Of a stretch of DNA of 64,000 nt, positions 29,469 through 63,826 are shown in pieces. The position numbers and the translations under genes are program-made. Source of the DNA: a virus (lineage: Duplodnaviria; Caudoviricetes); the IMG/VR virus record IMGVR_UViG_3300024259_001623; one strand, written 5' to 3'. Below the pieces are notes generated by a model. It did no database searches and was not told the origin of the DNA. It worked only from the letters and a program-made list of their open reading frames with translations. The first letter of the stretch is position 1. Every line of letters starts with the position of its first letter.

Positions 29469-30125
29469 ATGAAGACATATTGGAAAATATCTGGACCGAA
29501 TAAAGCTCCTAAATCTTATTGCACAGCTTTTTATAAGTATGATGGATCAAATATACGTATTGAATGGTCTAAAAAGAAAGGTTGGCATAAATTTGGAAGT
29601 AGAAATGTATTGATAGATGAAACTAGCTTTTTGGGTGAATCTATTTCGTTATTCCAAAATACATATGCAGAAGATTTGAGCAAAATTATAAAAGATAATA
29701 AAATTTTCAGGGGAGCAGATAGCGTAACTGCTTTTTGCGAATTTTATGGAGAAAAGTCTTTTGCAGGATACCACGAACCCGGCGACGAAATGAAAATTAT
29801 TTTGTTTGATATGAATATAAACAAAAAAGGTATAATGCCTCCAAGAGATTTTATAAAAACTTTTGGGAAACTAGAAATACCAGAAGTAATTTATGAAGGA
29901 ATATTTGGTCCAGCTTTTGTACAAGATATAAAGGATGGCAAATATACAGTTAAAGAAGGCGTAGTAGCAAAAGGTGTTAACCAAAATAAGAAGAAATCTC
30001 AACATTCTTTATGGATGGCAAAAGTAAAAACTAAGTGGTGGATAGATGAGCTAAAAAATAAAGCTTTGAAAGATGCGAAATTAAGTTCGGTTTTACAAGA
30101 TAATATGCAAGAACAGAGAGGGTAA
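29469..30125 (+). CDS. ATP-dependent RNA ligase (Rnl2-like nucleotidyltransferase)
   Basis: KYDGSN (motif I), FGSRN, CEFYG (III), LFD (IIIa), EGVV (IV), KVK (V); lacks DNA-ligase OB/BRCT domains. Confidence 0.75.
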   Translation: MKTYWKISGPNKAPKSYCTAFYKYDGSNIRIEWSKKKGWHKFGSRNVLIDETSFLGESISLFQNTYAEDLSKIIKDNKIFRGADSVTAFCEFYGEKSFAGYHEPGDEMKIILFDMNINKKGIMPPRDFIKTFGKLEIPEVIYEGIFGPAFVQDIKDGKYTVKEGVVAKGVNQNKKKSQHSLWMAKVKTKWWIDELKNKALKDAKLSSVLQDNMQEQRG

Positions 30126-50533: not shown

Positions 50534-50539
50534 TGTTCA

Positions 50540-50785
50540 TTAGGATTTCCCTTGTTCTGCTCTTTTCTTTTGTGCTGCTACCGTCAGGGGATGCTTGCGA
50601 ATGGGGAACCGAGCCTTTTGCCGCTCTGCATACTCTGCCAGATTCCTCTTCATTCTGGCGACGGCTTGTGTTGGCGTCAGTCCCATGATCGAGGCGGTGC
50701 GGACCATACCATTGATCAGTCCGTTATGCTCTATCTTGCTGCCCCAGAGCCGCTCTATTTCTTGTCGCCATTCGCCTTTTGTCAT
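50540..50785 (-). CDS. Small hypothetical protein
   Basis: ATG 50785 (MTKGEW) after AAAGGG, downstream of a TCCCTGA motif. Confidence 0.65.
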   Translation of the reverse strand: MTKGEWRQEIERLWGSKIEHNGLINGMVRTASIMGLTPTQAVARMKRNLAEYAERQKARFPIRKHPLTVAAQKKRAEQGKS

Positions 50786-50980
50786 TGTCTGATCCCTTTC
50801 TGCCCTTAACAATTGCGACTATTTGTTCAGGGATTGCTTGAGTTCATCCAAAAACCTTAACGCTTTGAGTTTCAGAATAAAAACATTTTCCTCAAAATTC
50901 CAATAGACGATAATGATAGCGATGGTTGCCAAGAAGTCCCACATGATTATATCCTTTCTGCCTTTAACAATTGCAGAGGT

Positions 50981-51196
50981 TTATTCAGGGAAAGGGTAAA
51001 CGTCCATTGCCCAAGGGAAGGCTTGGTGTAGGCCAGTCAGTGAGCTTTGGCAGAGCGTATGCCGTTCAGCTTGCCCATAGACCCTTATGGATTCTTTTAC
51101 CGTCCAGACCATCGTGGGCTTGTGCTTATTGCCCATCGTATCCAACAGAGTGAATTGCTGTCCGTTGTCTAGTGTGCAGAGTCCAACTTTAGCCAT
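50981..51196 (-). CDS. Small hypothetical protein
   Basis: 71 aa; AAAGGG RBS; ends across a TCCCTGA motif. Confidence 0.65.
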   Translation of the reverse strand: MAKVGLCTLDNGQQFTLLDTMGNKHKPTMVWTVKESIRVYGQAERHTLCQSSLTGLHQAFPWAMDVYPFPE

Positions 51197-51268
51197 TGTC
51201 TTACCCTTTCTGCCTTCTTTAATTATTGGCTTTATTTCAGGGGGCGAAAAATAAATGCAATAAAAAAA

Positions 51269-51308
51269 GATGTAGCCCCTAGCTTTTGCTAGTCGATTGG
51301 GCTACATC
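51269..51308 (-). terminator. Intrinsic terminator
   Basis: GATGTAGCCC/GGGCTACATC 10-bp stem followed by T7 on the minus strand. Confidence 0.75.
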
Positions 51309-51351
51309 TTCGGGAGGTCAGGGGCGACTTCTCGCCTCTGTGACTATGGTT

Positions 51352-51450
51352 CTAGTCGTCCAGTCCGTCCTCTTCGCTGTCCGTGCAGAGATGGAAGGGG
51401 CAAGTTTCGCAGTCGTCGTGGTCGCAGACAGTCTCGTGTGATTCGGGCAT
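51352..51450 (-). CDS. 32-aa Cys/acidic peptide
   Basis: MPESHETVCDHDDCETCPFHLCTDSEEDGLDD; below the ORF-track cutoff; similar to 62163..62315. Confidence 0.5.
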   Translation of the reverse strand: MPESHETVCDHDDCETCPFHLCTDSEEDGLDD

Positions 51451-51515
51451 TTTCGATTCCTTCTGTAAGAGGTTTGTTTCGCTACCCTTAACAATTGACC
51501 GTTACGCTTCAGGGA

Positions 51516-51854
51516 TCAGGACTTGATCGTCGTATGCCAGCGATTCCGGCAGGATGAGCATTTGCAACTGGCATCGCCAGTCCGGGTATTCAGGGTATAG
51601 AGTACCCGGGTGGACTTGCAAGCGGGGCAGGGGACTTCCGGAAGGGGGTCCGGGACGCTGTTGGTATCCTTCCAGGTCCCCCGGTCGCCGGTGTCGTGGG
51701 CGTTCAGGATTGCATCAGCTTCGGCAAGTTCTTCGCATTTTGTGCAAGTTTTTTCGTTGTGGTCGGCGGTAGAGGCCAGGACTTCGTTCCGGTGGGCTTC
51801 CAAGGCGTCGGCGGTCATGGTTTCAAGGGCGTTCATAATTCGGGAAGTGTTCAT
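51516..51854 (-). CDS. Small zinc-finger protein
   Basis: CTKC, CPAC, CKCSSC; AAAGGAG RBS. Confidence 0.75.
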   Translation of the reverse strand: MNTSRIMNALETMTADALEAHRNEVLASTADHNEKTCTKCEELAEADAILNAHDTGDRGTWKDTNSVPDPLPEVPCPACKSTRVLYTLNTRTGDASCKCSSCRNRWHTTIKS

Positions 51855-52049
51855 TTTGTAGCTCCTTTGTTGCCCTTAACAATTGACCGTTATTTATCAG
51901 GGAGATAGTAGGGAAAGAGAGAAAAGGCGATTCCATATCCTTTTTACAGGCCAATACGGGACAATCCAACTCTCTTTCGCCAGAGCCGATAGTTGACTCT
52001 CGGGAACATAAACCCTTCTCTACTGTCTCTTATGATTGATCGTTATTTA

Positions 52050-52160
52050 TCAGGGAATAAAGAATAGCAGGGCTACGACAACAGCAGCGCCAGCAACAGC
52101 AAAAGACGCAAAGCCTATAACCATGATAAGCTCGATCAACGTGAAAGCTGTTTTCTTCAT
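52050..52160 (-). CDS. 36-aa prepilin-type N-terminal methylation peptide
   Basis: MKKTAFTLIELIMVIGFASFAVAGAAVVVALLFFIP*; the stop codon is the TGA of a TCCCTGA motif. Confidence 0.7.
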   Translation of the reverse strand: MKKTAFTLIELIMVIGFASFAVAGAAVVVALLFFIP

Positions 52161-52205
52161 TGTTGTTCACTTCTCTTTTTGCGATTTTTTATTCTTGTTC
52201 AGGGA

Positions 52206-52367
52206 CTAAAGAAACCAGATAAAATTGCTGATGAAAAGGCAAAGAGCAGTAAGATAGAGAACTATTCCTATTTTTATTCTTGTACGGTTAGCTGTCCAGC
52301 CCATCTTACCGACGATGCAGGCGGTGAACAGTAGGGTAAAAGCTACAATCAGTATTATCAAAGCCAT
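52206..52367 (-). CDS. Small two-TM membrane protein
   Basis: MALIILIVAFTLLF...; AAGGAG RBS. Confidence 0.65.
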   Translation of the reverse strand: MALIILIVAFTLLFTACIVGKMGWTANRTRIKIGIVLYLTALCLFISNFIWFL

Positions 52368-52377
52368 TGTTTTCTCC

Positions 52378-52683
52378 TTATGCCTCATAAACGCATACTT
52401 GGCAGTTATTCAGGGGTTCGATCATGCCTCCAGCAGCGTTGACTTGTTCGATTGCTCTCATTAAGACTGGCTCTTGTGGCATACCGTATCGCCCGGTGTC
52501 GCCAGCCCAGATCGACGTTCCGCCGAAACAGGCGATCCACTCGAAAGGTCCATCCCAACAGAGCGTGGGACGTTCGAAACCCTTTTCTTGGCCGAGGATA
52601 GCGGGTTCGCCGTATTCCTTGGCGATGACGTTAAGGGCTTCAGCGAGAGTCTGTAGGAGTTCTTCTTGCTTCTTGTCGGTCAT
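52378..52683 (-). CDS. Hypothetical protein
   Basis: ATG 52683 (MTDKKQEE) after AAAGGGA. Confidence 0.7.
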   Translation of the reverse strand: MTDKKQEELLQTLAEALNVIAKEYGEPAILGQEKGFERPTLCWDGPFEWIACFGGTSIWAGDTGRYGMPQEPVLMRAIEQVNAAGGMIEPLNNCQVCVYEA

Positions 52684-53018
52684 TGTTATTCCCTTTCGGT
52701 AGTAAACAATAGATAGGGTTATAACAGGGAATTGGCTCGCCGACGATCCATCCATACAGAGAGAATGAGCAAGATCATGCCGCCGGGACCAGCGATGATT
52801 AACAGACTTGCAAGGACAACATCGAGGATTGTCATGAGTTCCATTGTTTGTTCCCTTTCAGTCTATTTCTTTTATGTTTGTTCTTCAGGGATTTAATCGG
52901 CACAAAACATCAAAACAAGCCCAATAACCCACATAACCATATTGCCAGTACATAGACCGACAATCAGAAGAATCAATCCTGCTAGTGCCATCTCTTTATC
53001 CTCTTATTTACAGGGATA

Positions 53019-53216
53019 TTATCCCACTCTGAATTTCTTATCTCTTTCCATAATTCGTTTGACAGTTGGCCAGGCCCACTCATAGCTGGCTCCGCTTTCA
53101 ATATCGACAACATGAGCGAAGTCGTGGAGTCTTCCAGCGATCATAGCTGGTTGATCGTTCAGTAAGCAGCTTTCGCCGGCGTACTGGTCTGCAATTTGTT
53201 GGATTGTTTCGTTCAT
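53019..53216 (-). CDS. Small hypothetical protein
   Basis: 65 aa; leader shared with 53470..53715. Confidence 0.7.
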   Translation of the reverse strand: MNETIQQIADQYAGESCLLNDQPAMIAGRLHDFAHVVDIESGASYEWAWPTVKRIMERDKKFRVG

Positions 53217-53414
53217 ACTCTTTCCCTTTTGTGTTTTTTATTCAGGGAGTCTTTGCTTCATAGCCCGTCGTACTTTTCTTCGGGCAAGGGTTTTCATTTT
53301 CCGGACAGAAGTTCTCCAAGGATTACAACAAGGGCAATGCCAACCACCAGGGCCAGAGTGAATATATCTATGATATATCTTTCCGAGTCCTTTTTTCCTT
53401 CCGGGCATCGTTGC

Positions 53415-53761
53415 CATTGTTTGTCCTTTCTACTCTTTCCCTTTTGAGTTTTTTATTCAGGGACGAAAATCAACCCAGCGGCCCTTGTTCCGGTGTATTG
53501 TAGCTGGGCCGGGGTTGTAAAGCCATGTGTTTATCGAACTTAGAAGTAAGCTGGATGCTGTCTATGGCATCTTTCGCATCTACCCCGGATACGTAACCTA
53601 CGCAGCGACCGGACGGGGTGTGAACAGTCCAGAGCGGGTAAGCGGGCTTGTCGCAATCGGGGCAGCGGAAGTTGTTTGTCAGTGTTCCGCAAGAGCATTC
53701 TCTGAGTTGATCCATTGTTTGTCCTTTCTACTCTTTCCCTTTTGCGTTTTTTATTCAGGGA
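53415..53761. repeat. 49-nt direct repeat (53415-53463 and 53713-53761) flanking one gene
   Basis: CATTGTTTGTCCTTTCTACTCTTTCCCTTTTG[A/C]GTTTTTTATTCAGGGA with one mismatch; partial third copy at 53216-53248. Confidence 0.95.
53470..53715 (-). CDS. Small protein with N-terminal zinc ribbon
   Basis: CSCG...CPDC. Confidence 0.7.
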   Translation of the reverse strand: MDQLRECSCGTLTNNFRCPDCDKPAYPLWTVHTPSGRCVGYVSGVDAKDAIDSIQLTSKFDKHMALQPRPSYNTPEQGPLG

Positions 53762-53896
53762 TTCTTTTTCAACCAGCAAATCAAGTCGATAATCCCTAAA
53801 AAGACAATCGTTAAGGAAATTGCCAGTCCTTTTTCTAGTGGAGTCATTCCCAGATCCTTTCGGCTTTTTTTATTTTGATTTATTTTTCAGGGAACG

Positions 53897-54256
53897 TTAC
53901 TGATTAGCCTTTTCATTGGCCTTTGTTTGTGCTCGGAGTAATTTTTGCATAAGATTCGCTGGCACCGGAGTCTTTCCGAGAGCATTGATAAAATCATCCA
54001 AAGCATCAGAAAGGTTACTAACCGATATCTGCAAGTCGTCGAGGTCTTGCAGTCGGTCGCCGATTCTTGTTTCTCGTTCGATAATATCGGCAAGTTGTGT
54101 TCTACGCCATTCTCTATCTGTTGGAACATCTGGCGAGCCATCAGGGAGCATTTGATCGAAAACAAATTTTTCGACCTTTATTCCTGCAACGTTGGCAAAA
54201 TGTGACTTAAGCATTTTTATCTCCGTTTGTTTTCTTCGCCGGGAATCTTTTGCCAT
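53897..54256 (-). CDS. Hypothetical coiled-coil protein
   Basis: 119 aa; the true start may be MLKSHF. Confidence 0.6.
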   Translation of the reverse strand: MAKDSRRRKQTEIKMLKSHFANVAGIKVEKFVFDQMLPDGSPDVPTDREWRRTQLADIIERETRIGDRLQDLDDLQISVSNLSDALDDFINALGKTPVPANLMQKLLRAQTKANEKANQ

Positions 54257-54389
54257 CTGGATAATACCATCTGGCTTCTTTCCCTACTGAGACAAGATAG
54301 ACAACAGACGGGCAGGGAGAACCGTATCTAGGTTCTGTCTTGACAATTGTTCCTCTCCCATCTTCTGTTCTAAAACGTACATGCTTCAT
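54207..54389 (-). CDS. Small hypothetical protein
   Basis: 60 aa; AAGGAG RBS. Confidence 0.6.
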   Translation of the reverse strand: MKHVRFRTEDGRGTIVKTEPRYGSPCPSVVYLVSVGKEARWYYPDGKRFPAKKTNGDKNA

Positions 54390-54424
54390 CCTGATATGAA
54401 AACTCCTTACTTATTCAGGGATAA

Positions 54425-54516
54425 CTGGGCCGGTAGGAGTCGAACCTACAAACGAAGGATGCGCAACCCTTCAACCGCCTCTCCGGCGGCGCGTCTGCCA
54501 ATTCCGCCACAACCCA
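54425..54516 (-). tRNA. Atypical class II tRNA (Leu/Ser-like) with a 5-nt anticodon loop
   Basis: TGGGTTG/CGGCCCA acceptor, Leu-type D arm GCGGAATTGGCAGACGC, CCGCC-GGAGA-GGCGG, 7-bp variable arm, GTAGG-TTCGACT-CCTAC. Confidence 0.75.
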
Positions 54517-54771
54517 ATAAAAAAGAGGAAAGGGTGAAAGGAACTACTCCGTCACTTTCTGCCCGCTTGCCTTCAGGCCCCTTTCCTTTTCGCAAAAACA
54601 TTTATCTCATGGCCGCAACCAAACGTTGTATGAGATAAAGAGGTCTTTGCTTGGATGCTCAATCCATTCTGTAGCAATTTTATCATTCTGGTCAGGGACT
54701 CTCGGCAACACCAATCCGGGCCGCAACAAGGCCGGGAATCCCTCTAAACCTTGCTGCGACCCTAGATATTG

Positions 54772-55101
54772 TTACGCCGGCGGTTCGACAATTTCGTTCG
54801 GCTGAAGGAAAAACATCTTATTTTCGACCGCGTTCTTTGCATCTCGCAAACTAAGGCCCGTCAAGTGACGGAGATACTTGATTGCCGGAATCTTGCGGCC
54901 GGAACTGACAAGATGCTGCATCTTGGCGTGATCGTCGCGTTCGATGGAAAAATCGGCGATGACGATAAGCGACTGATTGGCAAGATGACCCTCTTCCAAA
55001 ACTCGCAACGCCTGCTCCCGCATATCGCGGGTCATCGACGCCGAAGGGCAAACCAAAATGCTTCGGCTCAAGTCCATCGCTTGTATGGTAAAGCTGTTCA
55101 T
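54772..55101 (-). CDS. Protein with ribosomal protein L7/L12 C-terminal-like domain
   Basis: GRKIPAIKYLRHLTGLSLRDAKNAVE matches the bL12 CTD consensus KIxxIKxxRxxTGLGLKEAKxxVE. Confidence 0.7.
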   Translation of the reverse strand: MNSFTIQAMDLSRSILVCPSASMTRDMREQALRVLEEGHLANQSLIVIADFSIERDDHAKMQHLVSSGRKIPAIKYLRHLTGLSLRDAKNAVENKMFFLQPNEIVEPPA

Positions 55102-55161
55102 TGTTCATTTCCTCTTTGTAAGGGGTTTTCGTTCTTACCCTTTGTTATTGTTTGGGATTGT

Positions 55162-55422
55162 TCAGGGAAACTTTTTCAACAGCCGAAAATAGGCATAATC
55201 GGAAATCATATCGCTATTATGGACCTTACGCACAATTACGTTGTCCAGTTCTGCGTCTGGAAGGTTCGGGTCGTCGCACAAAAACATTTCGACGGCTCCA
55301 GCGGGCACATTCTCGCAATCGTAGGGAATCTGCTTCACGCCGCCGCGCCAAACTTGCTTGCCCCACAGCTTGCCGTCGCAGTTTTCTGGTCGAACGCCAG
55401 TATTGAAGTAAAAAGTTCTCAT
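55162..55422 (-). CDS. Small hypothetical protein
   Basis: 86 aa; AAAGGGA RBS. Confidence 0.7.
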   Translation of the reverse strand: MRTFYFNTGVRPENCDGKLWGKQVWRGGVKQIPYDCENVPAGAVEMFLCDDPNLPDAELDNVIVRKVHNSDMISDYAYFRLLKKFP

Positions 55423-55463
55423 TGTTTATTCCCTTTCTGCCTTTAACGATTGTTGTTATGGTT

Positions 55464-55754
55464 TCAGGGAGAAACTATAGCTTGATCTGAGTTAAACCGA
55501 CCGTCGAAAAGTTCGTCCACATGATGCAAAGAAACAAAATCGAGAGAGACACAACCCTCGAAAATATCGCCATTAGGAAAATGGACCTTAACCCTAAGAA
55601 GCCTGTCAGTCTTGGAATGATAGCCTAAAATATCTATAAAACGATGTTCATTTTTATGATGATTGACAGCAGGCAGTGGAGTATATCGCAGAGCCTCGCC
55701 ATGTTCCCCATTCCAGAGCTTACGAATTTCGTCATCAAGAGTATATCGAATCAT
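55464..55754 (-). CDS. Small hypothetical protein
   Basis: 96 aa; the stop is the TGA of the motif at 55464. Confidence 0.6.
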   Translation of the reverse strand: MIRYTLDDEIRKLWNGEHGEALRYTPLPAVNHHKNEHRFIDILGYHSKTDRLLRVKVHFPNGDIFEGCVSLDFVSLHHVDELFDGRFNSDQAIVSP

Positions 55755-55803
55755 TTTCTTATCCTTTCGATCTTTACAATTGAATATTATTCGTCAGGGA
55801 AAC

Positions 55804-55878
55804 TGGGCCCTGCTGGACTCGAACCAGCAACCGACGCTTTATGAGAACGCTGCTCTAAACCTGTTGAGCTAAGGGCCG
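55804..55878 (-). tRNA. tRNA-CAT, Ile2-like
   Basis: CGGCCCT-TA-GCTC...GAGC, GCGTT-CTCATAA-AGCGT, GCTGG-TTCGAGT-CCAGC, AGGGCCC-A. The body resembles bacterial tRNA-Ile2; C1:C72 mismatch; no CCA. Confidence 0.85.
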
Positions 55879-56109
55879 GTGCGGCTGGAGGGGGGTTAGC
55901 CCCTCCGAGCTTGTTCCTCCTGGATCAGGTCGATAACGTCGGCGAAGTGGTTGTAACCGAGCGACCCCTTGGTATAACGCTTAATCTCGCGTTCGGCATT
56001 CGTCAGATCGTAGCGAAGGGCGGCATCCGTCTTGCTGGTGAGAAGTCCCGATTCCTTGAGTTGCGTTGCGGTCATGGCTTTATCTCCTTTGTTAGCCTAC
56101 CGTTAATAA

Positions 56110-56298
56110 TTATATCGTCGGATTCAGGGAATTATAGACATTGTTCAAGACAGCAAAGGTAAAAAGTGCCGTTGCCATGTTGAAAATACATACTCCCCCA
56201 TTAAACCATGAAGCAGAATGAATAGCAAAAACAGCATTGGCAATGCCGCTGAAAAAATTGAACATACCGAGGAACCACAAAAATACCATACTTTTCAT
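56110..56298 (-). CDS. Small two-TM membrane protein
   Basis: Hydrophobic 62-aa ORF; AAAGGA RBS. Confidence 0.6.
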   Translation of the reverse strand: MKSMVFLWFLGMFNFFSGIANAVFAIHSASWFNGGVCIFNMATALFTFAVLNNVYNSLNPTI

Positions 56299-56516
56299 CG
56301 TTTATTCCTTTCGACCAGAAGAGATTTGTTGTTATTCTTCAGGGGAATTGTTCTCTTTAGCTTGCTTATCAAAAACTTTGTCTAAAGCCTGGAATAACAT
56401 TTTCTCTGAAACATCGCGGCCAAGACAGTAGCCGGCCCACGCTCCAACAGCGAATATGCCGATTAAAGCTCCGATTAGAATAGCAATCGTCATAGCATTA
56501 TTCCTTTGAGAGTATC

Positions 56517-56828
56517 TTAATACCTATCCCAACGCTTTAGTTCTTTTAGGATCAGGGATTCATCATCGGCGTGATTTTCTTTGTTGAGAGATACAGACTT
56601 TCCCCAACAAGAGACAACCAACTTGATTTGGGGGTCGATAATTCCTCTTTCTAATTCTTTTTCTGTTGGGTCTATCTCGCCGGCCATAATACGACAGAAG
56701 CCGGCCGATCTTACTAGGGATTGGTCCCAATTGCTAGGAACCATTGCGGCATGGTTTAAGTCAGCCGAGAAGACAACAACGGAGAATTGATCGGTAAACA
56801 ACTCAACAACAATGTATTTCATATCCAT
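56517..56828 (-). CDS. Hypothetical protein
   Basis: 103 aa; VVFS...H..M...VRSAGFC...CWGKSVSL. Confidence 0.75.
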   Translation of the reverse strand: MDMKYIVVELFTDQFSVVVFSADLNHAAMVPSNWDQSLVRSAGFCRIMAGEIDPTEKELERGIIDPQIKLVVSCWGKSVSLNKENHADDESLILKELKRWDRY

Positions 56829-56863
56829 ACAGATTATCCTTTTTCCGCGTCTTTTCAGGGAAG

Positions 56864-57067
56864 TTACCTATTGCCTAGCTTATAGAGAATAATCATAAAC
56901 AATAGGATTACGACAGCCATAAAAAGGCCACCAAAGCCCCACAGAGGCGACAAAACGACAAACCATGTGAAAGCATGGACACCTGCCAACTTGGTCACCA
57001 GAAGGTAAGCAAACGACAGAATCCAAGCGATAAACATCCAGGCCGGGGCCGTCAAGTCGAATTTCAT
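56864..57067 (-). CDS. Small two-TM membrane protein (WFVVLSPLW motif)
   Basis: ATG 57067 after AAAGGA. Confidence 0.7.
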   Translation of the reverse strand: MKFDLTAPAWMFIAWILSFAYLLVTKLAGVHAFTWFVVLSPLWGFGGLFMAVVILLFMIILYKLGNR

Positions 57068-57069
57068 TT

Positions 57070-57291
57070 TTATTTCCTTTTTCTGAGAACCCAACAGCTT
57101 TTCGCCTTGGGATCTTCATGCACGAACATTTCAACAGCATCGCCGACAGACGGAGCGAACCCCCAGCAACAACTGGTGTGGAATTCTCCCAAGTCATCGA
57201 CTTCCAACAACTTAGCCCCATCACGGTTAATGAAACCAGTGATAGTCCCACAATTGTTCGACGGTCGTTTGTAGAAACTTGTCATTTTCAT
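57070..57291 (-). CDS. Small hypothetical protein
   Basis: ATG 57291 (MKMTSF). Confidence 0.6.
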   Translation of the reverse strand: MKMTSFYKRPSNNCGTITGFINRDGAKLLEVDDLGEFHTSCCWGFAPSVGDAVEMFVHEDPKAKSCWVLRKRK

Positions 57292-57332
57292 ATTACTTCT
57301 CTTTTTTCTTTCTTTGTGCAGGGGAAAAATAC

Positions 57333-57381
57333 GAAGGGAAGCCGGCCGCAATTGCTACCCCGAGGGAGCCGACTTCCCTTC
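57333..57381 (-). terminator. Long hairpin, probable terminator or processing site
   Basis: GAAGGGAAG/CTTCCCTTC stem followed by GTATTTTT on the minus strand. Confidence 0.6.
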
Positions 57382-57590
57382 TCAAAACCATAATTAATCG
57401 CAATCTCTTATTATTTATTTTTTAGAGTTGTCAGAGCATGACTTTTCTCCTCGTGGGTTAGCAAATTATACTTGACATTCTTCTCTATAGTATACTTAGT
57501 AATTTTATGTTAATTGTCAGGGAGGCATAGTTTCCTTTCTACTATCTCTCTTAACCATACTTTACTATACTTGTCACATTTTCAGGGATG

Positions 57591-57818
57591 CTAATTGTTG
57601 TCGATATTGATAGTTACGAGCGTATGCCCGCCATCATGATCGACAGAACTAACAATGTCTGTGACCTTACCAAAAGCCAGCGTGTCACCAGGGAACTGTA
57701 CGATATACGTTTCTCCGATAGCTGGTATCCGAGCAGGGGCAACATCGAACAGATGGAATTGGTCGTTGTCTACTTCTTTGGCAAACTTAACTTGAATATT
57801 GATCGTAGCTTTAGACAT
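57591..57818 (-). CDS. Small hypothetical protein
   Basis: 75 aa between two motif copies. Confidence 0.65.
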   Translation of the reverse strand: MSKATINIQVKFAKEVDNDQFHLFDVAPARIPAIGETYIVQFPGDTLAFGKVTDIVSSVDHDGGHTLVTINIDNN

Positions 57819-57839
57819 TTTGATATCCTCTTCAGGGGT

Positions 57840-58007
57840 TTACCAGTTATTTACTTGATCGTCCGTTATACGATCATTTCTGTGAAGATCGTCAAGAAAA
57901 ATGACCCATGCTTGCCTCATTGCTGGTCTGTCATTTCTGCCATGTTGTTTCAGGATTGAAGGTCTGATTGTTTGGCAGAACTCTGCTTGGGCTTCTTGTC
58001 TTGTCAT
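57840..58007 (-). CDS. Small hypothetical protein
   Basis: MTRQEAQAEF...AMRQAWVIFLDDLHRNDRIT after AAAGGA. Confidence 0.65.
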   Translation of the reverse strand: MTRQEAQAEFCQTIRPSILKQHGRNDRPAMRQAWVIFLDDLHRNDRITDDQVNNW

Positions 58008-58035
58008 GGTTATTTCCTTTTTCGGGCAAAAAACA

Positions 58036-58067
58036 GGGGAAGGCTCAGGTGTTCCCAAGCCTTCCCC
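58036..58067 (-). terminator. Intrinsic terminator
   Basis: GGGGAAGGCT/AGCCTTCCCC stem followed by TGTTTTTT on the minus strand. Confidence 0.7.
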
Positions 58068-58077
58068 TTTGACGTTT

Positions 58078-58254
58078 TTACATAATGCCTTCATGGATAA
58101 GCCAGGAAACGTGGCCGTGTTCGCACCAGCCGTCCGGCTCGACCATGCAACCGTCTGTGGCTTCACAAACGCCGTCAAACATCCATTCTTCCAGTTGGTC
58201 CATACTCGGTTGCTGATCGGTCGGCGTCTTGTAGGGATACTTGGGACGGTCCAT
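58078..58254 (-). CDS. 58-aa putative metal-binding protein
   Basis: MDRPKYPY...GVCEATDGCMVEPDGWCEHGHVSWL; more plausible than the track's alternative frame. Confidence 0.65.
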   Translation of the reverse strand: MDRPKYPYKTPTDQQPSMDQLEEWMFDGVCEATDGCMVEPDGWCEHGHVSWLIHEGIM

Positions 58255-58314
58255 TTTTCGACTCCTGAAAAGGGGTTTCGTTCTCGACTACCTTTTATCA
58301 TTTTGATTGTTGTA

Positions 58315-58620
58315 TCAGGGAGTAATAATCAACTTGGCTTCTTTGACCCAATAGCAGTGGTCTTCTTCATCCCACTTAGACGCCAGGCCAAAAAAGAAAT
58401 GATCAAAACCATGTTTGACTGGTTTGTGCCATCCTTGTTTTCTGGCTTGACTTTTCGACGGGTAAAGTCCAGCAGCCACAAGCAAGTCAGACCAAAAAGC
58501 ATCGCCGACGACAACGAATGTAAACCATTCATCTGTATCAGGGATCGGGCCGAAAAACGCATCTCGGTCTGATTGGTTTACTCCATTGCCGACTAGAAAG
58601 TTTATTGATCTTCTTGGCAT
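58315..58620 (-). CDS. Small protein with S4-like RNA-binding motif
   Basis: DLLVAAGLYPSKSQARKQG resembles the S4 domain of TyrRS (AGLxxSxSEARRLIxQG). Confidence 0.55.
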   Translation of the reverse strand: MPRRSINFLVGNGVNQSDRDAFFGPIPDTDEWFTFVVVGDAFWSDLLVAAGLYPSKSQARKQGWHKPVKHGFDHFFFGLASKWDEEDHCYWVKEAKLIITP

Positions 58621-58676
58621 AACGTTATTTACTATTTTGTTTGATTTGTCAGGGAGATTATTTTAGGCGAAAAAAT

Positions 58677-58704
58677 AAGGGAAGCCAATTTCTCAGCTTC
58701 CCTT
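58677..58704 (-). terminator. Intrinsic terminator
   Basis: AAGGGAAGC/GCTTCCCTT stem followed by ATTTTTT on the minus strand. Confidence 0.7.
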
Positions 58705-58735
58705 ACCCTCCTCCAGCTTGTTTTAAGCCCCCTTG

Positions 58736-59047
58736 TTACAGAACAAGGCGGGTCGCCGCCTCATCAATCATACTGCCCTTAGTCCCTACCAACCGCCGCC
58801 CAAGGCCCTCTACGGCGTATCGGCGTGACGTTGGCGTATCCTCATCCGTTCGGGCGAGCTTGAGGATGGAAAGCCGAGCATTGCCGTCAACAAGAATATT
58901 GATAACGTCAAACGTCTTGCCCTTGGCTTTCGGGCCGTTGAGCTTATGCTTGATAACTCTCAGAGCGGAACGGGGGCAAAAAACTTCCGATATGCCCAAC
59001 TTGATATTGGCGACCTTACGCTTCTTTGCCTTCTTTTGCTTTGCCAT
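58736..59047 (-). CDS. Basic hypothetical protein
   Basis: 103 aa; GGAG RBS. Confidence 0.7.
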   Translation of the reverse strand: MAKQKKAKKRKVANIKLGISEVFCPRSALRVIKHKLNGPKAKGKTFDVINILVDGNARLSILKLARTDEDTPTSRRYAVEGLGRRLVGTKGSMIDEAATRLVL

Positions 59048-59118
59048 TGTCTTTTCTCCCAGAAAAAGGTTTTTGTTGTTGTCCTTTGCGACTACCTTTT
59101 ATGATTTCAATTGTTTTA

Positions 59119-59334
59119 TCAGGGAGATGGAACATCAGCATACGGAGCAAAATCTATCCGTATCGTTCCATTAGTTGCCACAACATGTTGATACACTTCC
59201 CCATCTTTTGTGTACCTATCCAAACGTTCAGGATGAAAACCTTTAACCCTAGTACAGAACCAATTAGCAGCCGAAACGCAGCCCATACGTCTTTTTTTCT
59301 TTTTCCACTCTTTAATCGCTTCTTCTATTCTCAT
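59119..59334 (-). CDS. Small hypothetical protein
   Basis: 71 aa; the stop is the TGA of a motif. Confidence 0.65.
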   Translation of the reverse strand: MRIEEAIKEWKKKKRRMGCVSAANWFCTRVKGFHPERLDRYTKDGEVYQHVVATNGTIRIDFAPYADVPSP

Positions 59335-59516
59335 ACCCTAACCATTTTTGTTTTTCTAATCAGGGAGAATATATAAGATAAGAGAGAACGTTCAGCCCCC
59401 TATCGCAAAAGAGAGGGCCGAACGTTTTTGCAATCAATCGCCCCTAACCTCTATGGTTAGGTAACTCTGCCGACGCTCATAATTGGCCGACAGAGCAACG
59501 ATTGCTCTCCCTTTTA

Positions 59517-59625
59517 GGCTCAAGTATTGGACTTGTCAGCGCTCTGCCAACTGAGCTATATCCCGGCTTTGCCGAGATAGCTGGACTCGAACCAGCGACC
59601 TTTGCATATCCAATAACGACTTGCC
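59517..59625 (-). ncRNA. Circularly permuted tRNA mimic, YrlA-type Y RNA candidate
   Basis: 5' to 3': closing stem, T-arm (GCTGG-TTCGAGT-CCAGC), acceptor stem capped by an AAA loop (TATCTCGGC/GCCGGGATA), D-arm (GCTC-AGTTGGCA-GAGC), closing stem (TATTGGA/TCCAATA; terminal GGC/GCC). Confidence 0.75.
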
Positions 59626-60027
59626 GCAACAGGACTATGCCTGCCCTTGGCCTAAATTCATTTTTAAGAAAAATGCAAGGGCGAGGCTTACTCCGCTGTA
59701 AGCCCCATCAGGAATTTTCCTTAGCCCTTGCTGACATCTTATTACGATTTCTGACTTGTTTTCAGGGAGACAAGGACAAAAATTATTTATCAATTTTCGT
59801 AGAAGATTTTCTCTTGTTTGTTTAGTATTTTAACTTTTTGTTAAAAGTACCAAGATACTTGTCTTTTTAGTCCTTGCTATGTCGGGGAGAGGAAGCTCTA
59901 TGCCGAGGTGTCTAGCTTAACAGGCATCGCTTCCTCTCCCCTAAACTGTACGTCCTTTGCGTCCTCTGCTCTCTTTTAGCATTACCCTTTTCAATTTTCG
60001 CTTGCTGGTCAGGGGAAACGGCTCCCC

Positions 60028-60606
60028 TTACCGCCGAACGATATACGCTTGCTTGTTCATGGTAATCGCTACGATGCTGGCGACCTTATAGTCGCGGAGA
60101 ATGATTTCCTTGTCGGTCTGTTGCGTTGCCGCCCGTCGCGGCTTGCTGAAGAATTCCCTTGCATCGGCCAACGTCGCAGCGTCCAATTCCTTGCCGTCGA
60201 GGCCGATATACTTGGCGTCAAGGGACTTTTCGACCTTCAATTCGACGTAGAATTGTCCCTTATGCTCGATCAGCGGCGTACCGTCGATCCGAGTTCCCCA
60301 TTTTCGAGGCTCGGCGACGAAAACGTCGGTATTGCCTTCTCGCTGGCGTTGGTTGTTGACCGAGTTGGCGTAACTCCAGCCGATCATGCAATTAACGCGA
60401 GAAACCTTAAACATCTTGCCGACAAACGGATTGCCAGTTTTCCGCATTTTCGGATCGGTTTTGGTTACGACCGTTACGAAATTGGCGCCCTTGTTGGCCC
60501 GCAGCATCGCAACCAATTGAGACTCATCAATGGCGATAACCGTCTGCTGGCCAGAAGTGTCGATAAAGAGTTGTTCGCTCGCAGTAATAGTCGCTGTCTT
60601 GCTCAT
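60028..60606 (-). CDS. Hypothetical protein
   Basis: ATG 60606 (MSKTAT) after AAAGG; WSYANSVNNQRQREG...RKWG...LIEHKG. Confidence 0.8.
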   Translation of the reverse strand: MSKTATITASEQLFIDTSGQQTVIAIDESQLVAMLRANKGANFVTVVTKTDPKMRKTGNPFVGKMFKVSRVNCMIGWSYANSVNNQRQREGNTDVFVAEPRKWGTRIDGTPLIEHKGQFYVELKVEKSLDAKYIGLDGKELDAATLADAREFFSKPRRAATQQTDKEIILRDYKVASIVAITMNKQAYIVRR

Positions 60607-60666
60607 TTTGTAACCTTTCTTTGTTAGGACTACCCTATACAATACCAGATTCTTTTTCAGGGAGAA

Positions 60667-60864
60667 TTAGATATTGATAAGTTTCACGCCCCATTGACAG
60701 CCGTAAGTTTTGAGAATTCTATCGTGTTCGTCCACTTCTGCGACATTATCGACAGAGATAGCAAAATCGCAACCTGTCAAATTTTCGAGAATATCGGCTT
60801 GGGCTTCTTCGATAGAATGATATTCTCCCACGCTTTCGTCGCTGTACCAAACCTTAATAATCAC
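60667..60864 (-). CDS. Small acidic hypothetical protein
   Basis: 65 aa; AGGAG RBS. Confidence 0.65.
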   Translation of the reverse strand: MIIKVWYSDESVGEYHSIEEAQADILENLTGCDFAISVDNVAEVDEHDRILKTYGCQWGVKLINI

Positions 60865-61183
60865 AATTCATCTCCTGTTCTTATATCTGACCATTCTGTA
60901 TCTACAATTTTTGTTTTGCCATTGTCAAAGCTGAAATGATAATCAGCATCAGAACCAACATCTCGCCGGGCATCTTCCATATCGCCTTCATGCTCAACAG
61001 TCAATTTGATAATGGCGTAAAAAGTTGATCGCATTGTTATATCCTTTCAAGGATAGGGATTTGTAAAAAATGAGTCAGGGAGATAGAAGTTGGTACTATC
61101 TCCCTCTGCATAATTTTTCGTTGTATCATAGGGTAGGAACGAAAAATTCAATGCAGGAGCTTTATTAAGCTCAACTCGTTATA

Positions 61184-61510
61184 CTACTCTTTATTTTTGT
61201 CGTTTTCTTCAGGGAGTTTCTCGCTTTTTGTCGCGCGATATTTATTTGGCTTACCGTTTGTAGCGTCAGTATGCCCTTCCTCGTAAAAATGTTGTGCAAC
61301 AGGGACCATAGATTTAACTGCATCTGCCTTGCCCGATAAATAAGCCGCCGGCAATACAGAAATCATCAAAACGCTCAAAGCAAGCAACGCCCCAGCGACG
61401 ACGTTTATTCTGAGTTCTTTATTATCAATCATAACCAGACTGCTTACGCATCCAGCCAAGGCTCCCATCGAAATAACCGTACAAGCTGTTAAGAAAAATA
61501 TCAGTCCCAT
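61184..61510 (-). CDS. Two-TM membrane protein (GxxDA family)
   Basis: Two hydrophobic helices, then EEGHTDATNG. Confidence 0.7.
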   Translation of the reverse strand: MGLIFFLTACTVISMGALAGCVSSLVMIDNKELRINVVAGALLALSVLMISVLPAAYLSGKADAVKSMVPVAQHFYEEGHTDATNGKPNKYRATKSEKLPEENDKNKE

Positions 61511-61544
61511 TTTGTTGTCCTTTCGTGTTACCTATCTGTATTTT

Positions 61545-61826
61545 CTACTCTTTTTCAGGGATCAATTCCCACTTCTCTTCGTGGACCTTTTGGTACTTAA
61601 TATCACCTTTGATTGCGTCAATTTGCCCTTGCTTGTAACCTTGTTTGTGGCCGTATTCTTCTCTGGCATTCCCTATGTCATGGCACAACAGAGGGACAAG
61701 TATTAGAAGGGAAAAAATCAAACATCCTCTAATGCTTGTAGAGATAAAGTTGTTATCTAATGACGCCAACAAGCAAAGAATAATTATGAATATCGCAGCC
61801 CAAGCGAATAATGCAATTGATAACAT
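61545..61826 (-). CDS. Two-TM membrane protein (GQIDA family)
   Basis: GYKQGQIDAIKGDIKY. Confidence 0.7.
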   Translation of the reverse strand: MLSIALFAWAAIFIIILCLLASLDNNFISTSIRGCLIFSLLILVPLLCHDIGNAREEYGHKQGYKQGQIDAIKGDIKYQKVHEEKWELIPEKE

Positions 61827-61838
61827 GATAAAACCTTT

Positions 61839-62135
61839 CTAGCCCATTAGTTCCTTTAGGCTCTTCGGTGTCCAATACATATCCCTTTCGACAGGGAGGC
61901 CCATCGGGCCGCGTAACTTCAACAGTTCCGACAACGAGAAATACCCCAATTCTTTCTCGAAACCATCGACCAAGCCGAAAAACCTATCAACTCCGTCGAA
62001 TTCGGTGATATACCAAGTCCAATTCCCATCAGGGGTGAAGAGTTTGACAACTGCCATAGTCTCTTCAAGAGACTTTTTCTCATTGGCATACAGCGGAGGA
62101 ATCTTAACTTTGAGTGCTTTGGTCAAAAGTTTCAT
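61839..62135 (-). CDS. DUF2958 family protein
   Basis: KLFTPDGNWTWYITE...FFGLVDGFEKELGYFSLSEL...ERDMYWTPK. Confidence 0.85.
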   Translation of the reverse strand: MKLLTKALKVKIPPLYANEKKSLEETMAVVKLFTPDGNWTWYITEFDGVDRFFGLVDGFEKELGYFSLSELLKLRGPMGLPVERDMYWTPKSLKELMG

Positions 62136-62162
62136 TGTTGTTCCCTTTCTACTCGTAATGAT

Positions 62163-62315
62163 TTAATCTTCAATATCAGGGAGATCGTGCTGGAACTCCT
62201 GATCCAAGAAAAGGTCAAAAGAATCATAAGAATCTGGCTCCTCCCAAAAGTAGGGGCATCCATCGCAAGTCGGACGGTCACAAGTCATACAAGCATCGTT
62301 TTCGCCATGAGCCAT
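62163..62315 (-). CDS. 50-aa Cys/acidic peptide
   Basis: MAHGENDACMTCDRPTCDGCPYFWEEPDSYDSFDLFLDQEFQHDLPDIED; AAAGGG RBS. Confidence 0.55.
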   Translation of the reverse strand: MAHGENDACMTCDRPTCDGCPYFWEEPDSYDSFDLFLDQEFQHDLPDIED

Positions 62316-62346
62316 TTTCTTACCCTTTATGTTGGTTGTTGATTGC

Positions 62347-62544
62347 CTACAGAAGAGGGTTTATTCCCGCTTTAATCAGGGAAAGATCAGTGATAGCATC
62401 GTTAAGATACTCATATTCGATATAGTCGCCGTCTGGAGCGTGTCGTTTGCTGCTCAGACGGAACATCTTACCGCAACGCTCGAAAGTATAGCCTTGCTTC
62501 CTGGCTCGCTTAGAGAGCCTCTTAAAATCATTGTCCACTTTCAT
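62347..62544 (-). CDS. Small hypothetical protein
   Basis: 65-aa ORF. Confidence 0.6.
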   Translation of the reverse strand: MKVDNDFKRLSKRARKQGYTFERCGKMFRLSSKRHAPDGDYIEYEYLNDAITDLSLIKAGINPLL

Positions 62545-62833
62545 CTTCCTTAGTTGTTTCCGATTTGACTATGCTTCTATAGGCATCTATTTGCCCTTTA
62601 ACGTATCCCTTTTGTTCTGCTAAAATCAGGGAACCATTCTCTTTTTCGCATTTATCATATCCTTCATGCCAGGCGATATTTGTAAAGCATCCAAACGCTC
62701 CAGCAGTAACCATAAGAAAAATAACGAAAAACACAAGTCCCCAACCGTCATCAGACGGAGCAGATACGCATGTCATGGATAACAATACCAGAAGCAACGC
62801 CAAAATGATGAAGAAAATTCCTAGCCCTAACAT
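62528..62833 (-). CDS. Two-TM membrane protein (GQIDA family)
   Basis: GYVKGQIDAYRS. Confidence 0.7.
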   Translation of the reverse strand: MLGLGIFFIILALLLVLLSMTCVSAPSDDGWGLVFFVIFLMVTAGAFGCFTNIAWHEGYDKCEKENGSLILAEQKGYVKGQIDAYRSIVKSETTKEDESGQ

Positions 62834-62862
62834 GGTAAATCCTTTCTATTTTCAGGGAGTTT

Positions 62863-63120
62863 TTAATCCGTCAGTATCTCTTTCTTTTTTTCGATACCTT
62901 CTCTATATCGTTCAATACGCCTAAACTCTATTTTCGAAACTTCTCCATCGTTCAAAGCATCTTCGATTTTTTCTTTGAGTTCAGGGAATTCTGCTTGCCA
63001 TTCTTTCAGAGAATCGTATTGAGACTCGGAAATTTCTTGACCATCCAAAACTGCGCCAACAAGAAGCAACGTGACCAAAGTTACGACAACAAGTGCGCAA
63101 CTCATTGCAAATTCTTCCAT
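62863..63120 (-). CDS. Single-TM membrane protein
   Basis: ATG 63120 (MEEFAM) after AGGAA. Confidence 0.65.
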   Translation of the reverse strand: MEEFAMSCALVVVTLVTLLLVGAVLDGQEISESQYDSLKEWQAEFPELKEKIEDALNDGEVSKIEFRRIERYREGIEKKKEILTD

Positions 63121-63124
63121 TTTA

Positions 63125-63406
63125 TTATTCCTTCTTTTCCCAAGCATCATTGTTAGAGGATTCTTTTTGTTCGTAATAAATCTCGCCATTGAGTGCATCA
63201 ACTTGGCCAGACTTATAACCATTTTCCCATACATGAGTTGTGAGCATTAAGATGGGGGTCACAAAGCACAATACTGCAAACAGGAATGGGACTAATGCCA
63301 GTCCATTCGGCTCTTTTTCATCAAAGAGAATGCAACTCCCGACTGCAAACAGCATACAGCCAAAAAGAAACATGATTGAGTAAACAACAACTGCTATCGT
63401 GAACAT
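63125..63406 (-). CDS. Two-TM membrane protein (GQIDA family)
   Basis: GYKSGQVDALNGEIYY. Confidence 0.7.
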   Translation of the reverse strand: MFTIAVVVYSIMFLFGCMLFAVGSCILFDEKEPNGLALVPFLFAVLCFVTPILMLTTHVWENGYKSGQVDALNGEIYYEQKESSNNDAWEKKE

Positions 63407-63431
63407 TATTTTTCCTTTCAATGTTACGTAA

Positions 63432-63573
63432 TACCCCTGGCAGGACTCGAACCCGAAACTCCACCATCATACATTTTCTTTATTGGAAGGCAGGGAGGTC
63501 CAGTCTCTAGCTTCCCATAATCATTATGTATTCTGGACATACGGTGTTGTTTTGCCAATTAAACTACAGGGGC
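63432..63573 (-). tRNA. tRNA body with 77 nt in place of the 7-nt anticodon loop
   Basis: GCCCCTG/CAGGGGT acceptor, GTTT-AATTGGCA-AAAC D arm, ACACC/GGTGG stem, CGGG-TTCGAGT-CCTG T arm. Confidence 0.7.
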
Positions 63574-63826
63574 GTGTGCTGTCCCATATACCGGCCCTAT
63601 CTCAATCTATTTTCTTTTACTCAGGGACAGCTATGAATAAAAGATCTTACTGAGACAGGGGAGAGTTTCCATTTTGGCCCAGGATTTTCAAACGATACTC
63701 TCCAAACGTATCCTTATCGGGCTGTCCTTAACGCATTATACTAGCTCCTTTCATTATTAGTAGCTTATATTATTGCTCTTACGTTAAGTATTAATTTCGT
63801 GTGTTGTTTCAGGGAGAACTACTTAA

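Follow-up and report, generated by a model that had tools for sequence, protein, structure and literature searches.

The minus strand of the 64,000-nt stretch of phage DNA analyzed here (the window) carries, from position 63573 to 63432, a 142-nt tRNA-shaped gene that has a foldable extra RNA in its anticodon loop, a promoter-like motif upstream, and an insert core that recurs in a tRNA-like gene of a second phage. The reading we favor, at about even confidence, is that the gene makes a stable tRNA look-alike that does not decode, built from an Ile-type tRNA body with a pseudoknotted domain. The source of the locus is a roughly 434-kb uncultured marine phage, and the 93-aa protein encoded next to the gene is also found on a 434,625-bp contig.

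A tRNA scaffold with an enlarged anticodon loop

The Rfam tRNA model RF00005 aligns to the gene over its full length (model positions 1-71, by cmscan) with a score of 36.2 bits, and since this exceeds the gathering threshold of 29 despite the insert, the cloverleaf is that of a canonical tRNA. In this alignment the anticodon-stem strands ACACC and GGUGG (stem X in Table 1) are separated by 77 nt, that is, the seven loop nucleotides plus a 70-nt insert; the preliminary description of this DNA, which reported intact acceptor, D and T arms around 77 nt in the anticodon loop, was thus correct. The acceptor stem has seven pairs, of which G1-U72 is a wobble pair, the D stem has four pairs that close the loop AAUUGGCA with its G18 and G19, and the T arm has the loop UUCGAGU, four pairs and one mismatch; the discriminator is A, and CCA is not encoded. 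The near-universal features of an anticodon loop are pyrimidine 32, U33 and purine 37, and a canonical 7-nt loop with these features is absent from the gene. An acceptor stem and a T arm together with the lack of a usable anticodon loop, in a phage-encoded RNA, are the marks of a phage non-decoding tRNA-like RNA, and the 142-nt gene has all of them.

ARAGORN with its default settings misses this gene (it reports six tRNA genes and no tmRNA in the window). When introns are allowed (ARAGORN -i), as had been suggested, it calls the gene as a tRNA-Ile(UAU) whose positions 33 and 34 are separated by a 68-nt intron, in an anticodon-stem register that is shifted by one base (CACCG/UGGUG) relative to that of Rfam (ACACC/GGUGG). 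Four copies of the locus are available, one in the window and three in other metagenome contigs; they are 100% identical and so uninformative about selection. The phage is present in the samples ENA ERZ27250163, ENA ERZ27250271 and JGI 3300023210.

Table 1. Positions in the window of the parts of the 142-nt gene, its flanking elements and the phage RNA ligase gene
Feature	Position	Strand	Basis
Whole tRNA-shaped gene	63432..63573	-	Rfam RF00005 36.2 bits, ARAGORN -i
Acceptor stem, 5' strand GCCCCUG	63567..63573	-	cmscan alignment
D arm GUUU / AAUUGGCA / AAAC	63549..63564	-	cmscan alignment
Outer "anticodon" stem X, 5' strand ACACC (ARAGORN CACCG)	63543..63547	-	cmscan, ARAGORN
77 nt between stem strands	63466..63542	-	cmscan alignment
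Outer stem X, 3' strand GGUGG	63461..63465	-	cmscan alignment
T arm UCGGG / UUCGAGU / CCUGC	63440..63456	-	cmscan alignment
Acceptor stem, 3' strand CAGGGGU, and discriminator A	63432..63439	-	cmscan alignment
GUAUG, 5' copy of border direct repeat	63538..63542	-	sequence reading
GUAUG, 3' copy of border direct repeat	63468..63472	-	sequence reading
Pseudoknot stem S1 (Pa), 5' strand GUCCAG	63533..63538	-	perfect 6-bp complement of 63498-63503
13-mer UAGAGACUGGACC; its CUGGAC part is the S1 3' strand	63497..63509	-	exact match in L088/L203 gene
Helix Pb, 5' strand AUACAU	63526..63531	-	helix search, arm folding
Helix Pb, 3' strand AUGUAU	63469..63474	-	helix search, arm folding
Helix S2 (Pc), 5' strand GGAAG	63511..63515	-	helix search, arm folding
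Helix S2 (Pc), 3' strand CUUCC, then A-rich AAUAAAG	63485..63489	-	helix search, arm folding
TCCCTGA promoter-like motif, 47 nt upstream of RNA 5' end	63621..63627	-	motif count, consensus
Second box atagggc, upstream of 142-nt gene	about 63594-63600	-	consensus comparison
93-aa small membrane-protein gene, 26 nt downstream, no TCCCTGA of its own	63125..63406	-	probably co-transcribed
Stand-alone RNA-ligase-type adenylyltransferase P0087, 34 kb from 142-nt gene	29469..30125	+	motifs, fold

The ancestry of the tRNA body can be approached through its two ends. Its 3' 20-mer (T arm and acceptor) is common to many phage tRNAs of several isotypes, and its 5' 23-mer, which is far more specific, has six matches in IMG/VR. 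Five of these six are five-arm tRNA-like genes of 93-99 nt whose loops are of the CUUAUAA type and whose extra arm displays GAU, and the sixth (L039) is a further irregular gene, its stem 8 bp and its loop 12 nt long. Because the 5' 23-mer matches the five-arm genes with UAU loops, the body descends from a phage Ile(UAU)-type tRNA. The four non-anticodon identity elements of E. coli tRNA-Ile (A73, C4-G69, U12-A23 and C29-G41) are all present in the ARAGORN register, a lead only. The five-arm genes (L001, L016, L037, L042 etc.) resemble the 142-nt gene in a near-identical 5' half (acceptor GYCCCUG and D arm UAGUUUAAUUGGYAAAAC) and in similar T-arm and acceptor 3' strands. They differ from it in that they keep a 7-nt CUUAUAA or CUUAUAC loop and have their extra hairpin in the variable region, whereas here the extra RNA is in the anticodon loop and no normal loop is left. 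Inserts of this size are common in such genes: a pattern of D arm, gap and T loop gave 19 matches, 17 of which are tRNA-shaped genes of large phages with central inserts of 50-80 nt, and further insert-bearing tRNA-shaped genes are present in a 488-kb IMG/VR phage. When five huge-phage genomes were scanned with the covariance model R1, the matches were ordinary tRNAs and inserts of another family, marked by an ACGGUUA motif; the insert described here was not among them.

The gene sits at the upstream end of a minus-strand array of mini-genes that have a repeated motif in front of them. TCCCTGA occurs 45 times in the window (6.4 copies are expected), and 40 of the copies are co-oriented within 50.3-63.8 kb; the consensus for each mini-gene is TCCCTGA, followed by an A-rich spacer containing AAT, a box resembling AAgggtag, and then the Shine-Dalgarno sequence and ATG. 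The 142-nt gene has both TCCCTGA and a second box upstream (Table 1). The 93-aa gene downstream has no TCCCTGA and is therefore probably co-transcribed with the tRNA-shaped RNA, which would probably be the first element of a transcript that runs into the 93-aa gene. We considered the TCCCTGC in the insert as an internal promoter for the 93-aa gene and rejected it, as its spacing is unlike that of the motif family.

Pairings in the insert and recurrence of its core

Three pairings had been claimed for the insert, two of them nested and one crossing, and all three are present as perfect Watson-Crick helices: AUACAU/AUGUAU (Pb, insert nt 12-17 and 69-74), GGAAG/CUUCC (S2, also called Pc, nt 28-32 and 54-58) and GUCCAG/CUGGAC (S1, also called Pa, nt 5-10 and 40-45), the last of which crosses both Pb and S2. 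A feature absent from that claim is a 5-nt direct repeat, GUAUG, which we read at both borders of the insert. Statistical support for the helices is weak: when the 77 nt are shuffled with dinucleotides preserved, 4.8% of the shuffles have at least two 6-bp helices and 1.9% have at least five 5-bp helices, and the minimum free energy of the whole 142-nt RNA is unremarkable against shuffles (z-score -0.8); on this sequence alone the pairings go beyond chance only marginally. Stem X and the insert, when folded alone, give an optimum of -18 kcal/mol that contains X, Pb and S2, with pair probabilities of 0.88-0.99 for Pb and 0.77-0.90 for S2. A nested fold in which S1 serves as an anticodon-like stem with an internal hairpin is 5 kcal/mol worse than this optimum and is set aside as an alternative only; for this reason S1 is predicted to be compatible with the optimal arm only as a pseudoknot, which is how the crossing pairing had been interpreted in the preliminary description.

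Is there any other RNA in which this arrangement is found? A contig reached through DUF2958 (JGI Ga0209986_10003708, here L088) holds at 3336-3451 a 116-nt tRNA-like gene (23.9 bits with the Rfam tRNA model and 21.9 bits with model R1), and the central region of that gene includes the exact 13-mer UAGAGACUGGACC that forms nt 34-46 of the insert here. This 13-mer (complement GGUCCAGUCUCUA) is unique in the window. We estimate that an exact 13-mer match would occur by chance about 1-3 times in 1000 over the roughly 23 inserts inspected, and gapped local alignment of the insert with L088 gives P = 0.009 against shuffles. Like the window, L088, which comes from an unrelated phage, has an array of mini-genes and a repeated motif, in its case AGTCCCGA with 21 copies; it has the DUF2958 gene and no other gene in common with the window. 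The elements follow one another identically in the two RNAs. At the 5' side is a stretch able to pair with part of the 13-mer (GUCCAG here, GGUCU(CU) in L088); next comes the 13-mer, flanked by the two strands of a helix, and an A-rich tail ends the series. By sequence reading, the helix around the 13-mer is GGAAG/CUUCC here and GGCU/AGCC in L088, and the tails, AAUAAAG here and AAAUAAG there, lie at an equivalent relative place. The two RNAs appear to have a common H-type pseudoknot topology, in which the S1 pairing draws on different parts of the 13-mer in L088 and here. Two "compensatory" pairs in S2 depend on our hand structural alignment, because MAFFT aligns the S2 region with L088 differently. 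The L088 gene has no outer stem X, and the module occupies the whole anticodon-arm position; therefore the module would there be the anticodon arm itself and not an insertion into one, and this speaks for a resident domain over one destined for removal. L203, a 97%-identical variant of L088 whose gene differs by one D-loop base, adds nothing to the comparison.

Other searches set the range of these relatives. True relatives were reached through the neighboring SprT (63% identity) and DUF2958 (75%) genes (ENA ERZ23498360/61/65 and Logan SRR10072862/63), and a relative has an equal 420-nt gene-free gap ahead of a 93-aa gene; the gap lies at 5567-5987 of a 7,150-nt contig in ERZ23498360 and at 2163-2583 of a 3,626-nt contig in ERZ23498361. 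Contigs reached through the DUF2958 homologue P0106 were tried as a source of relatives of the module and turned out to be unrelated phages. The module has no paralogue in the window and the 10 kb beyond it (74 kb of phage). A pattern of the 13-mer plus CCAA gave >130 matches in metagenomes and IMG/VR, all of them due to chance except the L088 contig and L203; a 10-mer plus T-loop pattern gave only chance matches in IMG/VR, and the 13-mer plus T-loop pattern gave none in GTDB genomes. Exact exon and insert patterns had no match in IMG/VR, and the pattern of D arm, gap and T loop had none in the JGI metagenomes, a search in which the source phage itself was also unrecovered. The 93-aa protein found only itself when its homologues were sought, searches of GenBank phages, by tblastn with three proteins of the window and by blastn with the locus, gave no close relative and no insert match, and none of five huge IMG/VR contigs examined for relatedness by way of a 706-aa protein matched.

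Excision, splicing and the phage RNA ligase

The preliminary description had offered two possibilities, a mini-intron whose flanking halves could be joined by the phage RNA ligase at 29469 or an unspliced tRNA-like RNA. The first would be a protein-dependent intron: 68-70 nt would be cut out at equivalent positions in the GUAUG repeats or at a relaxed bulge-helix-bulge (BHB)-like site, and the halves would be healed and sealed, possibly by the stand-alone ligase of the phage, to give a 72-74-nt tRNA with the anticodon UAU (Ile, AUA codon) or AUG. We consider this unlikely. The ARAGORN -i model with its 68-nt intron, the direct repeat at the insert borders and the match of the 5' half to five-arm genes with CUUAUAA loops (anticodon UAU) all speak for it, but is there any excision that would leave a working anticodon loop? 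Every contiguous excision that leaves a 7-nt loop was enumerated in both the Rfam and the ARAGORN registers. The Rfam register gives the loop GUAUGAU for any cut inside GUAUG and otherwise GUAUGUU or GUAUGUC, all three with the anticodon AUG and G32; the ARAGORN register gives UGUAUGA (anticodon UAU, with G33 and G37) or the A33 loops UAUAUGA, UAUGUGA and UAUGUCA. None of the registers combines pyrimidine 32, U33, purine 37 and a used anticodon, and in every one the loop is defective, through G33 and G37 with the anticodon UAU, A34 and G32 with AUG, and U37 at the BHB site. A decoder of AUA is, moreover, presumably already present: the CAU-anticodon tRNA at 55804-55878 resembles a lysidine-type AUA reader such as E. 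coli ileX.

An archaeal-type BHB has a 4-bp helix between two 3-nt bulges, each of which is closed by a helix (PMC4090602). At this locus one can draw stem X, a bulge of 3 nt (GAU) and a helix of 4 bp that joins the GUAU at loop nt 32-35 to a 3' GUAU, and this bulge and helix have the positions of the 3' bulge and the central helix in an archaeal 37/38 intron (PMC4090602), a point in favor of excision. However, the helix as drawn consists of two Watson-Crick and two G-U pairs, the 5' bulge stays open, with no second helix to close it (sequence reading), and excision at the BHB-defined sites would give the loop GUAUGUU (anticodon AUG, U37), which is not a functional one. The insert thus resembles the protein-spliced introns of archaea and eukaryotes in its place in the anticodon loop and in a length within their 11-129-nt range (PMC4090602), and differs from their BHB introns in the unclosed second bulge, the two G-U pairs among four and the product loop. 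No splicing endonuclease was found in the phage DNA read here, which is the window out of a genome of ~434 kb. Such an enzyme (EndA/Sen) is not known in bacteria. A true intron of 70 nt that is cut by protein at the duplicated GUAUG in a relaxed BHB-like structure and resealed by the phage ligase is, in our judgment, quite unlikely; were it real, it would be protein-catalyzed tRNA splicing outside archaea and eukaryotes.

The closest precedent for an intron is in the Lak megaphages, whose tRNA genes have "enigmatic" short introns with an unexplained mechanism of removal (Devoto et al. 2019, PMC6784885); those introns were defined in part by aligning the genes with alleles that lack the intron, and one of the introns has a tRNA shape of its own (PMC6784885). 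As in Lak, a huge phage here has an insert of tens of nucleotides, with no group I features, in the anticodon loop of a tRNA-like gene, and the small RNA ligase P0087 of this phage, with its RNA-ligase fold, has homologues in Lak; the Lak introns and these homologues favor the intron. In contrast to Lak, excision restores no normal loop, no intron-less allele is on record, and the insert is not tRNA-shaped; neither is it a tRNA top half, either of which would be expected of the Lak Thr(TGT) type.

The identification of the open reading frame at 29469 as an RNA ligase is right, because its motifs, profile match and fold agree. The P0087 motifs KxDG, E, EG and KxK are invariant across 46 homologues (K23, D25, G26, E91, E163, G164, K185 and K187), the profile of the family (709 cluster representatives) matches the Palaeococcus RNA ligase 8uce, and the AlphaFold model built from the alignment (pLDDT 96.3) has REL1, T4 Rnl1, NgrRnl and T4 Rnl2 as its best Foldseek matches (E 3e-7 to 1e-6). 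With motifs I, III, IV and V and a predicted adenylyltransferase fold, P0087 has the features of an ATP-dependent RNA ligase. It has no Pfam, PHROGs or NCBIfam match, and among GenBank phages its homologues are in huge phages only, including Lak and XacN1. The P0087 gene adjoins ordinary tRNA genes, and the RNA ligases of jumbo phages have been explained by the repair of cleaved tRNAs (PMC7824862), which would account for P0087 as well; its candidacy for a sealing role holds only on the intron reading. So, of the mini-intron joined by a ligase, the ligase is confirmed and the splicing is unsupported: no canonical loop is produced, no ribozyme or group I core is present, and tRNA repair suffices to explain the enzyme. 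The homologous core in L088, which is not embedded in a separate anticodon stem, also weighs against an intron.

A different possibility is that a small insertion, through a GTATG target duplication or microhomology, inactivated a tRNA gene and left a pseudogene or a harmless leader, with the pairings and the 13-mer match being products of chance. The 5-bp direct repeat flanks exactly 70 extra nucleotides, the fold statistics are weak, the four identical copies give no sign of selection, and the TCCCTGC of the insert is one base from TCCCTGA, so that the insert may be stray local intergenic DNA. Against this, the T loop, G18 G19 and each of the four tRNA stems are preserved, a consensus promoter-like motif of its own precedes the gene at the customary distance, chance would hardly produce an exact 13-mer match to a second tRNA-like gene, and phage genomes rarely keep dead 200-bp units; we therefore think such a disrupted gene rather improbable.

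Known RNA classes were sought by running cmscan with all 4227 Rfam families on 63300-63750 at E values up to 10, which gave only the tRNA match and one chance hit. Group I introns are roughly 200 nt or more long with a catalytic core, P3-P9, and they occur in cyanobacterial tRNA-Leu and tRNA-fMet and in Azoarcus tRNA-Ile. The insert is like these in its place, the anticodon loop of a tRNA gene of bacterial type, and unlike them in its length of only 70 nt and in the lack of any RF00028 match even with E values up to 10 allowed; the earlier statement that its length is insufficient for a group I intron is borne out. At the same cutoff the locus has no hammerhead, twister, HDV-like, pistol or hatchet match and no second tRNA nested in the insert, which also has no T-loop motif; a preQ1-type or other riboswitch pseudoknot was ruled out by the lack of an Rfam match (cmscan, E up to 10). 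A self-cleaving or self-splicing mini-ribozyme (an RNA-only intron) is brought to mind by the ~70-nt size and pseudoknotted fold and is very improbable, given that no Rfam ribozyme or group I model matches at E up to 10, that self-cleavers religate exons inefficiently and that the anticodon loop would still be defective after excision.

A proposed tRNA look-alike and what it may mean

The unspliced tRNA-like RNA, the second of the two original possibilities, fits better than the spliced one, since a second phage has the insert core again, in a tRNA-like gene without a separate anticodon stem. That such an RNA could be aminoacylated and would be shielded from anticodon nucleases, as was also suggested, is conjecture. 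The look-alike reading has its own difficulties: the 13-mer could instead be a conserved splice site or an intron recognition element, the helix counts are marginal relative to chance, the z-score of the whole RNA is only -0.8, and the compensatory pairs in S2 rest on a hand alignment.

How such an RNA is processed, how stable it is and what it does we infer as follows. Transcription would start at the TCCCTGA-type promoter, and RNase P and 3'-end enzymes would release the tRNA-like body from the downstream mRNA, after which CCA would be added to it. Helices Pb and S2 would form an extended arm, and the S2 loop with UAGAGACUGGACC would pair back to the base of the arm (S1) to make an H-type pseudoknot. 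The knotted domain may bind a protein or form pairs with an RNA; it might serve, for instance, as decoy or adaptor in a tRNA-centered conflict between phage and host.

Several other RNAs combine a tRNA-like part with something else. Like tmRNA and YrlA, the 142-nt RNA would have a tRNA-like body together with a pseudoknot or protein-binding modules. It is not a tmRNA: its pair 3-70 is C-G, unlike the alanine identity pair G3-U70 of tmRNA, and a tmRNA is called neither by Rfam nor by default ARAGORN in the window. It is unlike YrlA in that the topology of YrlA is permuted and the Rfam YrlA model has no match at the gene. A weak match to that model lies 4 kb away.

Small stable tRNA-like RNAs are made by T-even phages and T5, T4 rnaC and rnaD ("species 1 and 2 RNA", NC_000866 70908-71171) among them. 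Like these, the 142-nt RNA is phage-encoded, appears to be non-decoding and has tRNA-like ends. The T4 RNAs lie among tRNA genes and are not recognized by the Rfam tRNA model, giving only a 17.5-bit tRNA-Sec-like partial match, whereas the RNA described here has a full cloverleaf scaffold (36.2 bits) and is encoded in an early-type mini-gene array, not a tRNA cluster. A look-alike that is a variant of these poorly understood phage tRNA-like RNAs is the most likely reading.

Large phages have many tRNA-shaped genes that are missed by annotation pipelines or labeled as intron-bearing tRNAs. Whether such a gene encodes a spliced decoder or a permanent look-alike changes how the tRNA set of a phage is counted, and it bears both on whether protein-dependent tRNA splicing exists in the bacterial world and on the role of the long-known, unexplained tRNA-like stable RNAs of phages. 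The 142-nt RNA is a concrete object on which to test this, and its 13-nt core could be a bait for a protein or RNA partner.

Insert-bearing and aberrant tRNA-like genes in other phages

The 5' half of the tRNA-like gene of L039 (a compared phage sequence; see table below) differs from that of the gene under study by 1 base in 25, and its "anticodon" stem is 8 bp long and closes a 12-nt loop, UACCGAAACUUC. The tRNA-like gene of a second compared sequence, L049, has a 7-bp anticodon stem and an insert of ~70 nt that contains two hairpins; because the loops of these hairpins (GGGAUCA and CUGAUCC) are complementary to one another, a kissing-loop design is possible for this insert. The 488-kb phage G001 has an insert family different from that of the studied gene, and four of its insert-bearing tRNA-like genes carry the motif ACGGUUA(U/A)C in their central region.

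Motifs and small genes of the mini-gene array

The TCCCTGA motifs of the array have an extended consensus in which TCCCTGA is followed by an A-rich spacer, AAT and then AAgggtag, and they probably mark a phage-specific promoter class. An analogous motif, AGTCCCGA, is present in 21 copies in the unrelated phage contig L088. The three predicted small membrane proteins, whose C-termini have the motif GY(K/V)xGQ(I/V)DA in common, are paralogues dispersed along the mini-gene array. The 44-codon open frame is taken as fortuitous.

Locations of features in the window and in the compared sequences
Feature	Location	Strand	Remarks
Predicted small membrane protein, 93 aa	window 63125-63406		
Predicted small membrane protein, 101 aa	window 62528-62833		
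Predicted small membrane protein, 93 aa	L043:4581-4862		
Open frame, 44 codons	window 63424-63558	minus	spans insert and 3' half of tRNA-like gene
TCCCTGA motifs, 40, co-oriented	window 50370-63815	minus	each ~45-60 nt upstream of a mini-gene start
YrlA (Y RNA-like) match	L230:16543-16656 (about window 59.5-59.6 kb)	minus	Rfam
tRNA, anticodon CAU	window 55804-55878	minus	Rfam, 57 bits
"tRNA-Leu(GAG)", 94 nt	window 54424-54517	minus	ARAGORN call
RNA-ligase adenylyltransferase, stand-alone, 218 aa	window 29469-30125		
tRNA-like gene	L039:4416-4497		IMGVR_UViG_3300033463_006796
tRNA-like gene	L049:3202-3345		IMGVR_UViG_3300033067_002132
Insert-bearing tRNA-like genes, 4	G001: 622-748, 76685-76810, 77622-77725, 84654-84773		IMGVR_UViG_3300020429_000539

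RNA ligase and further putative RNA genes in the window

Pfam, PHROGs and NCBIfam do not recognize the family of the RNA ligase. Among GenBank phages, the family was detected solely in those with genome sizes between 385 and 642 kb, such as Lak, XacN1 and LR745206. The YrlA-like match, 4 kb downstream of the studied tRNA-like gene, scores 38.8 bits and so is below the gathering score of 69. The "tRNA-Leu(GAG)", with its 8-bp acceptor stem, a G at position 33 and a below-threshold score with the Rfam tRNA model, may be a further aberrant tRNA-like gene. The CAU tRNA is similar to the lysidine-type tRNA-Ile2 exemplified by E. coli ileX; if it is indeed a tRNA-Ile2, the phage may already be equipped with a reader of AUA codons.
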